DNA of 30,971 bases from an uncultured Methanobrevibacter sp. (GTDB taxonomy: Archaea; Methanobacteriota; Methanobacteria; Methanobacteriales; Methanobacteriaceae). Both the position numbers and the translations under genes were made by a program. Positions 2,171-3,975 of the stretch are shown here, in pieces (position 1 is the stretch's first letter; each line of letters opens with the position of its first letter). A model generated the notes under the pieces. It had not been told where the DNA came from. It did no database searches and saw only the letters and a program-made list of their open reading frames with translations. The stretch lies in contig NZ_CACZTX010000014.1 of the NCBI RefSeq assembly GCF_902784195.1, forward strand, positions 1 to 30,971, given 5' to 3'.

Positions 2171-2815
2171 TTACAAATGATTAAACAATGTCCAAATTTC
2201 AGGATACTTTTCAGCTATTGCAGCATCTATCAAGTCTGATGCTTCACTGCTTATGCTGAATTCAGGTTCGGTTTTTCTCAAGTACCTTAGTACAGCTGCT
2301 GATTTTGCTGACCATAAAGTGATTCTTGGGTTTTTTTCCACAGTTTCGATGACTTCATCTACTAGTTTCTCTTCTTTTTCTGAGAGAAGACTACCAACTT
2401 CTTTTATATCATCAGAAGCTTCAATTATTTCACTACTTGCATCAGTTTCTTCATTTAAATTAACTGTAGAATCAATATTTTCTACACTTTTTTCTGAACT
2501 GATTTTTTCTTCAGTTTTTATCTCATCATCTTCCACTTTTTCATCGTCATTGAAGAAAACATTTGTGTACTCGGATGAGTCTTTAGGTTTTTCATCTTCA
2601 ACATCTGCTGATTTTTCTAAAACTTGAAGTTCATCTTCACCATCAAATTCCTCTTCAACTTCTTCCACCAGTTCTTCAAATGTTTTTGACTCATCTTCGG
2701 ATTCCCTTAATAAATCTTCAAGACTAATGCCCTCTTCGACTTCTGTCTCTTCGATCTTTGGAATCAATGAATCCAATCCTCTTCCTAATCCTGTATTCTT
2801 TTCCTTTTTAGCCAT
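2171..2815 (-). CDS. ParA partner protein: ParB-type N-terminal peptide + long acidic linker + small C-terminal RHH-like domain (SegB/ParB-adaptor-like)
   Basis: 214-aa ORF, 89 bp downstream of and co-oriented with the ParA gene. The N-terminus MAKKEKNTGLGRGLDSLIPK closely resembles the ParA-stimulating N-terminal peptide of bacterial ParB/Spo0J (GLGRGLxALLP). Residues ~25-160 are E/D/S-rich low complexity. The last ~55 aa (NPRITLWSAKSAAVLRYLRKTEPEFSISSEASDLIDAAIAEKYPEIW) have a strand-helix-helix pattern. No ParB HTH or GERRxR box is visible. Confidence 0.5.
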   Translation of the reverse strand: MAKKEKNTGLGRGLDSLIPKIEETEVEEGISLEDLLRESEDESKTFEELVEEVEEEFDGEDELQVLEKSADVEDEKPKDSSEYTNVFFNDDEKVEDDEIKTEEKISSEKSVENIDSTVNLNEETDASSEIIEASDDIKEVGSLLSEKEEKLVDEVIETVEKNPRITLWSAKSAAVLRYLRKTEPEFSISSEASDLIDAAIAEKYPEIWTLFNHL

Positions 2816-2904
2816 TTTACCAAACCCTTTCGTGTTTAAAATTTAAAATTTAATTATAATTCATAATCATCAAAATCATTGTTCTAAATCAATATATCCT
2901 CTCT

Positions 2905-3690
2905 TTATTTTCCATCTCTTTCCAATATTTCCTTAGCAAGTTTCAAGTAAGCTATTGCTCCTTTACTTTCTGGATCATAGACAATACATGGTTTTCCATA
3001 ACTAGGAGCTTCTGCCAAACGTATGTTCCTTGGAATTACTGTATTGAATACATATTCCTTGTCCTTGAAGTATTTTTTTAGTTCGGAATAGACTTCCCTT
3101 CCTAACCGGGTTCTTGCATCATACAGTGTTAGAAGTATTCCCTTGATAGGTGTTGGGCTTCTTAATCTAGTTTCCACAAGCTTGATTGTATTCATTAAAT
3201 CCGCTAATCCTTCAAGTGCAAAGTATTCCGCTTGAATTGGTATCAATACGCTGTCTGCTGCTATCAATGAATTTATTGTAATTATTCCTAGAGATGGTGG
3301 CAGGTCTATAATAATGTAATCAAAAATGCCTTTAATCGGTTCAAGTAAGTTTTTCAATGCTATATGATAGTTAGCTTCCTTGCTTAATTCCACTTCGATA
3401 CCACTTAAGTCGATATTGCTTGGTAGTATGAATAGGTTTTCAATTTTAGTAGGAATTGTTGCTTTTTGAACGCTGCATTCGTTTACTAAAGCAGTGTATA
3501 CTGTCTTCTTGATTTCTGTTTTATTTATCCCAAAACTTGTGGTAGCATTAGCTTGAGGATCCATGTCAACTACAAGCACTGCCTTTCCCATTGCAGCAAG
3601 TGATGTTGCCAAATTAACTACTGTTGTAGTCTTACCACATCCGCCTTTTTGATTCATTACGGCACTTAGAAGTTTTTTCTTAGCACTTAT
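2905..3690 (-). CDS. parA: ParA/Soj-family (SegA-like) partition ATPase
   Basis: Deviant Walker A NQKGGCGKTT, DMDPQ, Walker B IIIDLPP, and C-terminal RLAEAPSYGKPCIVYDPESKGAIAYLKLAKEI as in Soj/ParA. The ORF-track ATG (3657) lies one residue before the P-loop and would delete strand beta1. The frame stays open upstream (ISAKKKLLSAV), so I extend to ATA at 3690-3688, just after a GTGAC SD-like element. The family call is firm; the start is uncertain. Confidence 0.85.
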   Translation of the reverse strand: MSAKKKLLSAVMNQKGGCGKTTTVVNLATSLAAMGKAVLVVDMDPQANATTSFGINKTEIKKTVYTALVNECSVQKATIPTKIENLFILPSNIDLSGIEVELSKEANYHIALKNLLEPIKGIFDYIIIDLPPSLGIITINSLIAADSVLIPIQAEYFALEGLADLMNTIKLVETRLRSPTPIKGILLTLYDARTRLGREVYSELKKYFKDKEYVFNTVIPRNIRLAEAPSYGKPCIVYDPESKGAIAYLKLAKEILERDGK

Positions 3691-3710
3691 TAGTCACAAC
3701 CTCATAGTTA

Positions 3711-3975
3711 TTACTTATATATTATAATTTATAAGTTATACTATATAAGTTTTAAGTTATATCTTATTACTTTTACTTTATAATTTATCATTTATAAGTT
3801 TTTACTTTTAACTTATTTCTTATAATTTTATAAGTTATTAGTTATAACTTATAACTTATAACTAAAAATTATCATAAGAAATAAGAAAAATATAAGAAAA
3901 AATACCTAAAAATAGATGAAAATATTAGAAAAATTCATTAAAAAGAGAGAGAAGTTATCACTTATAAGTGATAAC
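3711..3975. repeat. array of ATAAGTTAT/ATAACTTAT-core repeats with (TTATAAC)x3 and a perfect 22-bp palindrome; candidate centromere/operator upstream of parA
   Basis: TATAAGTT cores occur at 3730-3740, 3745-3752, 3793-3800 and 3829-3838, with TTAAGTTATA at 3752-3761. The inverse ACTTATA occurs at 3713-3719 and AACTTAT at 3810-3816. Three perfect tandem TTATAAC heptamers lie at 3842-3862. GTTATCACTTATAAGTGATAAC at 3954-3975 is its own reverse complement. Confidence 0.5.

Follow-up and report, generated by a model that had tools for sequence, protein, structure and literature searches.

In a 30,971-nucleotide stretch of DNA from an uncultured Methanobrevibacter sp. (NCBI RefSeq assembly GCF_902784195.1, contig NZ_CACZTX010000014.1, positions 1 to 30,971; hereafter the window), we identified a locus that we regard with good confidence as the SegAB operon by which this rumen Methanobrevibacter would partition its chromosome, in a euryarchaeal form with an array-based centromere mechanism. 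It consists of segA, coding for a ParA-type ATPase, segB, coding for a 214-aa partner, and an upstream array of phased TTATAA-(G/C) heptads (Table 1). The SegAB operon is a known kind of system, represented here by its euryarchaeal variant, and SegB homologues from Methanobacteriales have already appeared in the literature (PMC5120986; bioRxiv 10.1101/2025.04.15.649018; PMC12284271). The initial annotation of the window, made from its letters without database searches, had described a ParA and a 214-aa partner on one strand, separated by 89 bp, as a candidate partition cassette of NTPase, adaptor and cis site. The arrangement is correct to the base pair, both genes lying on the minus strand, and the cassette as a whole finds support in the SegB homology, the ParB-type peptide, the synteny and the recurrence of the heptads presented below. 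The closest named relatives of the source organism are rumen and gut metagenome-assembled genomes and M. olleyae.

Table 1. Features of the segAB locus (positions in the window, unless a relative's locus is named)
Feature	Position	Strand	Basis or remark
segB, 214-aa SegB-family putative centromere-binding protein	2171..2815	-	open reading frame, stop codon included; family profile match to 7DUV
N-terminal basic peptide MAKKEKNTGLGRGLDSLIPK (residues 1-20)	2756..2815	-	kept in all family members inspected
Putative ParA-binding motif LGRGLDSLI (residues 10-18)	2762-2788	-	spacing as in M. xanthus ParB
Acidic disordered linker (residues 21-145)	2381..2755	-	composition; low pLDDT
Conserved SLEDLL motif in the SegB linker (residues 31-36)	2708-2725	-	alignment of relatives
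Predicted C-terminal DNA-binding domain of SegB (residues 146-214)	2174..2380	-	aligns to 7DUV residues 42-105
Presumed ribbon-helix-helix strand RITLWS of SegB	2309-2326	-	
AT-rich segA-segB spacer, 89 bp	2816..2904	-	possible internal segB promoter (function inferred)
segA, Soj/ParA-type deviant Walker A ATPase, 5'-truncated	2905..3657	-	250 aa; intact form 257 aa
Remnant segA leader	3658..3705	-	frame stays open as far as the in-frame TGA at 3694-3696, ahead of which stands ATG AGG TTG
Junction of the 81-bp deletion	between 3663 and 3664		alignment with conspecific contigs
22 phased heptads, consensus TTATAA-(G/C), candidate segS centromere/operator	3707..3861	.	Tandem Repeats Finder; lag-7 test
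Perfect 22-bp palindrome GTTATCACTTATAAGTGATAAC, candidate satellite site for SegB, with a T-rich tract after it	3954..3975	.	
7-nt-periodic segB linker DNA, Archaeoglobi-like relative	L143:3001-3483		
7-nt-periodic segB linker DNA, Methanotrichaceae relative	L144:3001-3429		
7-nt-periodic segB linker DNA, ANME-1 relative	L145:3001-3531		

SegB couples a predicted SegB-type DNA-binding domain to a ParB-type peptide

SegB is a ribbon-helix-helix (RHH) centromere-binding protein, the unstructured N-terminus of which stimulates the ATPase SegA (PMC8682754). Whether the 214-aa partner belongs to this family had been left undecided in the initial annotation; by profile comparison it is a SegB homologue. 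A profile of 26 family sequences recovers the Sulfolobus solfataricus (Sso) SegB chains of the PDB over the RHH domain (7DUV, E=6.2e-17; 7DV2, E=7.4e-15), with the next match at E=0.024, and scans of the partner against Pfam and NCBIfam return zero families, hence no ParB helix-turn-helix (HTH) or CTPase domain, as the initial annotation had held. Across the 205 cluster representatives obtained from a whole-library HMMER search, the C-terminal ~60 residues are common to nearly all and the N-terminal motif to most; an alignment of 33 relatives contains 26 invariant columns in the C-terminal domain. The first nine positions of K-N-P-R-I-T-L-W-S-A-K (residues 161-171) fit the published 11-position SegB signature (K/R)-(D/N)-P-(K/R)-I-(G/T)-(V/L)-W-S-(Y/P)-(P/E) (bioRxiv 10.1101/2025.04.15.649018), while the final A-K does not. 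By our own mapping of the eight listed DNA-contact residues of Sso SegB, W168, S169 and S189 are identical here and R164 represents a K-to-R change. An AlphaFold2 model of the last 75 residues (140-214; predicted local distance difference test, pLDDT, 80.8) shows a first helix, a coil at PRITLWS and two further helices, an order of elements that agrees with SegB. Sequence homology points to an RHH fold for this domain. Some family members (P0184, P0224 and similar representatives) have two tandem SegB-like C-terminal domains and no N-terminal ParB-type peptide.

At the other end of the protein, the sequence L10-G-R12-G-L14-D-S-L17-I18 reproduces, with identical spacing and at the same distance from Met1, the motif L11-G-R13-G-L15-x-x-L18-I19 described for ParB in the Myxococcus xanthus ParA/ParB study. 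A 20-position profile of the family N-termini, searched against 177,635 PDB sequences, has Thermus thermophilus Spo0J residues 1-18 as its sole match (E=0.0039), which bears out the likeness to a ParA-activating ParB N-terminus that had first been noticed in the initial annotation; the window's 25-residue peptide on its own likewise matches only T. thermophilus Spo0J (residues 3-19, E=0.44). Most members share with bacterial ParB a central R or K, and one group of genera shows a GLGMGLDALI-type motif with a central Met or Leu (L083, L098, L106; P0151, P0154, P0155, P0164). SegB homologues named Methanothrix, Methanotrichaceae, Archaeoglobaceae and 'Ca. Methanospirare' likewise carry the ParB-type motif. 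The window family does possess a conserved N-terminal motif, of the ParB type rather than the MSELDFLL type of Sulfolobales, whose MSELDFLLKKK has only the L-D-x-L-(L/I) part in common with the window SegB. No ParB_N domain scores above the Pfam cut-off in the source genome; a 214-aa open frame (G000:C1:103521-103697) with a ParB_N-like match of 25.5 against a cut-off of 26.3 bits has no ParA neighbor.

Between these two conserved ends lies the linker, which is poly-acidic and of low complexity as initially described, with 39% D+E, a pI of 4.05 and, for residues 44-141, mostly pLDDT values below 50; the full-length AlphaFold2 model (pLDDT 56) confirms the disorder and no more than that. Its length ranges from 22 to 247 aa across relatives, and variable SegB linkers have been described before (bioRxiv 10.1101/2025.04.15.649018). 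The adaptor architecture, which had been called unusual, is so in relation to bacteria, but is the normal layout for a euryarchaeal SegB. Within the linker, an S/T-L-E-D/E-[ILM]-[LM] motif occurs in 92 of 105 relatives, ~12 residues past the ParB-type peptide; in the window the corresponding SLEDLL region is predicted to form a short helix (residues 32-41) and may provide a second contact with SegA.

SegA is an ATPase of the bacterial chromosomal type

Sequence comparisons place the segA product among the ParA-type Walker ATPases of the bacterial chromosomal kind and not as a close orthologue of Sulfolobales SegA. It matches PF13614 (E=2.7e-64), and the intact 257-aa form encoded by conspecific contigs has M. 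xanthus ParA (8RAY) as its best PDB match (E=1.6e-76, 48.8% identity over 252 residues), followed by Helicobacter pylori and T. thermophilus Soj, the bacterial ParA/Soj chains spanning E=1e-56 to 1.6e-76. S. solfataricus SegA (7DUT) is aligned only in part (residues 5-169, E=2.2e-18) and ranks below archaeal MinD too; the bit scores are 260 to M. xanthus ParA and 70, for the partial alignment, to Sso SegA. The protein retains KGGCGKT with K11, the signature lysine, and K16, in addition to D40, and R220 corresponds to the DNA-binding R238 of M. xanthus ParA. Of the residues that form the ParB-peptide pocket of ParA in the M. xanthus study (V116, L150, L152, L155, L187, L192), all six have equivalents that are identical or changed from Leu to Ile (V96, L130, I132, I135, L167, L172). 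It is the only Soj-type ParA of the source genome. The initial designation as a canonical Soj/ParA accordingly holds for the family, but not for the copy at hand, which is 5'-truncated and devoid of strand beta1 (see below).

A phased heptad array unique in the genome and recurrent next to segAB

The array comprises 22 copies of a 7-nt period by Tandem Repeats Finder, contiguous apart from one 1-nt phase slip. Its lag-7 identity is 0.675; 2000 shuffles give 0.40+/-0.035 and never attain the observed value. Of 23 parsed units, 21-23 have an A at each of positions 3, 5 and 6 of the heptad, and position 7 is G, C or A. The in-phase score of the array is the maximum of the entire 2.05-Mb genome, 8.5 standard deviations above the mean, and all exact double heptads of the genome are inside it. 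The 22-bp palindrome, which occurs once in the genome, reads in heptad register as three more units (TTATCAC TTATAAG TGATAAC) and is retained with changes in the close relatives L002-L004; it could also conceivably be the terminator of the upstream PALP gene. The A-rich stretch between array and palindrome (3865-3948) contains 21- and 32-nt periodic repeats of ATAAGAA units, possibly degenerate heptads. A repeat array with a perfect palindrome had been placed immediately upstream of parA in the initial annotation: both elements are there, but in intact relatives the array ends ~110 nt upstream of the ParA start. An origin or DNA unwinding element was considered for the array and rejected, there being no origin recognition box (ORB)-like boxes within 4 kb and cdc6 lying on another contig.

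Both the gene pair and the heptads are widespread. SegB is present in 115 of 121 genomes of the family and 254 of 265 genomes of a phylum-wide sample, covering all 29 of 29 genera, and the exact segB product sequence occurs in 227 blocks of public assemblies. Synteny of the two genes in related genomes had been named beforehand as a refutation test, and it holds: segA is directly upstream of segB in 30 of 30 loci from 27 genera, as well as in 10 of 10 conspecific contigs and three distant lineages (L143-L145). The two genes abut or overlap in many other genera. Given this near-universal presence, together with neighboring genes that are alike in the ten conspecific contigs, segAB can be regarded as a core chromosomal operon.

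Gene pair and repeats also co-occur across Methanobacteriales, with heptads recurring next to segAB throughout the order and beyond it. Other Methanobrevibacter genomes and those of sister genera have TTATAA-(G/C) heptads upstream of segA, as do two further families with genomes of 37-49% GC, where an AT-only array is conspicuous. Loci L023, L029 and L030 differ in having the long array downstream of segB, with only 3-4 units left at the promoter. Exact hits to TTATAASTTATAAS were counted in five complete genomes: 67 of 69, amounting to 19 of 21 sites, fall within 100 kb of segB, as against 0-5 hits per strand for reversed-pattern controls. In the three distant loci (Archaeoglobi-like, Methanotrichaceae and ANME-1), the two genes overlap, and the ~90 bp before segA are taken up by T(T/G)ATAAS units. 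Further, the linker-coding DNA of these three segB genes is itself 7-nt periodic, with a lag-7 identity of 0.44-0.48 versus 0.23-0.33 at lags 6 and 9, and can be read as heptads (GTTATAAGTGATAAG = V-I-S-D-K), so that the linker there resembles an array of heptads that is translated; in the window, by contrast, the linker DNA gives no 7-nt periodicity signal (lag-7 identity 0.26).

Proposed mechanism of action

Taken together, the heptad array is probably the centromere of SegAB, and we advance the following mechanism. SegB would dimerize via its C-terminal RHH domain, and every TTATAA palindrome in the 7-bp-phased array would take up one dimer, in the way that the two half-sites of the Sulfolobus site take up two. 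With one dimer per hexamer, the 22-heptad array and the 3-heptad palindrome would nucleate a helical nucleoprotein filament constituting the centromere, which, given the position of the array at the segA promoter, is probably also an auto-operator. Such a filament would display dozens of ParB-type peptides on long acidic disordered tethers, and these might then activate nucleoid-bound SegA. The outcome would be the usual ParA-gradient transport, with the array-bearing region of the chromosome as the presumed cargo.

Points against the partition reading and alternative explanations

Several observations weigh against this interpretation. First, the experiments on SegAB all come from Sulfolobales, so it is by extension that we infer euryarchaeal DNA binding and ATPase activation. 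Second, the AlphaFold2 monomer of the C-terminal domain contains no beta strand, and Foldseek ranks the SegB chains (7DUV/7DV2) 1-3 but weakly (E=0.18-0.34, TM 0.42-0.45), so the RHH assignment is one of sequence homology; the C-terminus that had been described as ~55 aa of strand-helix-helix is about 69 aa long and has the predicted order of elements, with PRITLWS unformed as a strand in the monomer. Third, by the same mapping as above, the Sso SegB contacts K75 and K81 are Ser here (S187, S193), R78 is S190, and R106 has no aligned counterpart. Fourth, the central R/K of the peptide is replaced by M or L in some genera, which is unexpected if a basic residue is needed for ATPase activation. 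Fifth, TTATAA also resembles the archaeal TATA box.

Two further points concern the genomic setting. One relative with a 1.24-Mb genome (G121) has no heptads adjoining segAB; instead, six identical four-heptad sites are found 30-94 kb away (C1:1073611-1136475, loci L137-L142). Five of the six lie within a repeated ~100-bp module carrying, 27 nt away, an ORB-like box, the 17-mer TTACACTTGAAATTTAC, which is found nowhere else in that genome. The heptad sites of this lineage may therefore have a meaning other than that of simple dispersed centromeres. The distance from segAB to cdc6-1 is 33-45 kb in three genomes and at most ~105 kb in two more (sizes rounded). Another two have distances of about 200 and 310 kb; an origin-proximal position as in bacteria fails in these last two and is not claimed.

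Finally, segA is truncated in the window. Alignment with the ten conspecific contigs shows ~81 nt to be missing, a piece that is identical (TATTCATTAC...AGGAGAATTAATATAATGGGAGAAACTATT) in eight of them and slightly different in two variants, and that contains the ribosome-binding site of segA (AGGAG) together with its ATG and codons 1-5 (MGETI). As a result of this deletion, the window SegA has for its first residue the Met that precedes NQKGGCGKTT, and strand beta1 is missing. The ATG-AGG-TTG-TGA upstream of segA is simply array-flank sequence joined to the gene; selenocysteine or read-through of the TGA was considered and rejected, as the conspecific alignment explains the anomaly by deletion. 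If the deletion is real, the loss of the ribosome-binding site, start codon and first five codons may have crippled the partition system here, with segA untranslated or devoid of beta1 and segB alone active from a promoter in the spacer. The rarity of the 250-aa form, found on just 3 contigs as against 720 for the 257-aa form, speaks for such a defect, as do the intact starts (M(G/S/A/V)E(T/I/V)I(A/S) or equivalent) of all 29 relatives with the 5' end in the locus and the fact that the upstream in-frame ATG reaches the TGA after two codons. On the other hand, the deletion could be an assembly or consensus error; the remaining 250 codons, for residues 8-257, do not differ from those of the intact allele and so show no sign of decay; and translation might begin at Met8 or at a non-canonical start (ATA/CTA). 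We consider a defective system in this genome quite possible, though short of probable. Were the truncated segA a real natural variant, it would be useful for asking whether the ATPase is dispensable.

For the system in general, the array might be a transcriptional operator and nothing else, with SegB an omega/CopG-like autorepressor and the ATPase serving another cargo or a non-partition role. In families f2/f3 and L143-L145, the heptads do extend over the stretch directly before the segA start, where the promoter must be; omega and other RHH partition proteins double as global repressors, with parS heptads over promoters (PMC4498918); and a review notes that the Sulfolobus sites could be regulatory (PMC5120986). 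However, arrays of ~20 units far exceed what an operator needs, the long array lies downstream of segB in some genera with just 3-4 units at the promoter, and the complete genomes have extra heptad sites kilobases to tens of kilobases off the operon. Moreover, the pairing of peptide and pocket makes a partition-type activation module, and the operator and centromere roles are not mutually exclusive. We hence hold a purely regulatory array to be unlikely.

Least probable is that the heptads serve TBP/TFB or some regulator different from SegB, or have a structural role as an AT-rich element, with SegB recognizing some other sequence: the TATA-like unit, the Ser residues at the positions of the phosphate contacts K75 and K81 and the indirect nature of the SegB-heptad link would fit this, but the unit, its G/C spacer and the 7-bp phase are kept next to segAB in genomes of 23% to 49% GC from four orders, the geometry equals that of the proven Sulfolobus SegB site, those Methanobacteriales genomes in which the unit recurs have a nearly invariant strand NPR(I/V)(T/S)LWS, with variants such as NPRVVVWS in other orders, and the vicinity of the window array is free of ORB-like boxes.

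Relationship to known partition systems

The proposed partition role invites comparison with three groups of systems. The SegAB/segS of Sulfolobales (SSO0034/SSO0035 and S. acidocaldarius; 7DUT, 7DUV, 7DV2) shares with the window locus the order segA then segB and a SegB consisting of a short N-terminal ATPase-stimulating region, a variable middle and a C-terminal RHH domain (the first and the last predicted in our case). Its site, TCTAGA-S-TCTAGA, binds one dimer per half-site in the crystal (PMC12284271, PMC8682754), and, like the heptads, is situated near segA and pairs a palindromic hexamer with a single G/C, giving a 7-bp register. The differences are fourfold: (i) the peptide is GLG(R/K)GLD(S/A)LI in place of MSELDFLLKKK; (ii) the window ATPase is nearer to M. 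xanthus ParA than to Sso SegA, a protein of about 220 aa with an atypical non-sandwich dimer; (iii) TTATAA hexamers are assembled in a 22-unit array, as against isolated 13-bp TCTAGA palindromes; (iv) the strand reads R-I-T-L here and K-I-G-V there, a different hexamer going with a different strand.

With bacterial ParABS (8RAY, with ParB residues 1-20; Soj/Spo0J, 1WCV/1VZ0), the locus has in common the ATPase, in its overall identity, Walker motifs and six pocket residues, the partner's N-terminus L-G-R/K-G-L-x-x-L-I and, in the three complete genomes mentioned above, a distance of 33-45 kb between segAB and cdc6-1. In contrast, SegB has none of the ParB/Srx CTPase domain, HTH and clamp, and is predicted to bind DNA by an RHH fold; the candidate cis site is a heptad array and not a 16-bp parS; and juxtaposition of peptides by CTP-dependent clamp closure cannot apply. 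A third likeness is to the plasmid systems delta2/omega2/parS of pSM19035 (inc18) and ParF/ParG of TP228, in which the centromere-binding protein is a small RHH dimer, and its unstructured N-terminal tail stimulates a Walker-type ParA that is likewise small; the omega parS of pSM19035 consists of 7-10 contiguous 7-bp heptads in both orientations, overlapping promoters (PMC4498918). Those systems are plasmid-borne and use another heptad sequence, whereas segAB is a core chromosomal pair with an acidic linker of ~125 aa, and the SegB profile retrieves no omega or ParG chain from the PDB at E<=10.

Implications for partition in euryarchaea

To our knowledge, no chromosome-partition system other than SegAB has been studied in Archaea. 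In the literature searched, we did not find the ParB-type SegB peptide, the bacterial-type ATPase or the heptad centromere of the euryarchaeal SegAB. The published view is that SegB is unrelated to any bacterial protein (PMC5120986; bioRxiv 10.1101/2025.04.15.649018), and the euryarchaeal copies have been proposed to derive from Sulfolobaceae by transfer; a convincing SegB motif was not found in a euryarchaeon in another study (PMC12284271). Against this backdrop, we raise a broader and rather doubtful possibility, namely that the euryarchaeal SegAB might be a distinct and widespread partition type rather than a Sulfolobaceae transfer. It would unite a bacterial-type ParA, a ParB-type peptide grafted onto the RHH domain of SegB and a near-universal heptad centromere (T-T/G-A-T-A-A-S) common to Methanobacteriales, Archaeoglobi, Methanotrichales and ANME-1, while in some lineages the array would run through the segB frame, making the linker a translated centromere array. 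If our main reading of the locus is true, the ParB-type peptide and the ParA pocket that matches it would mean that bacterial ParB and archaeal SegB have a ParA-activation module in common, and the TTATAA-S heptads would furnish a concrete centromere candidate for the methanogens of gut and rumen, as well as for several other euryarchaeal orders.

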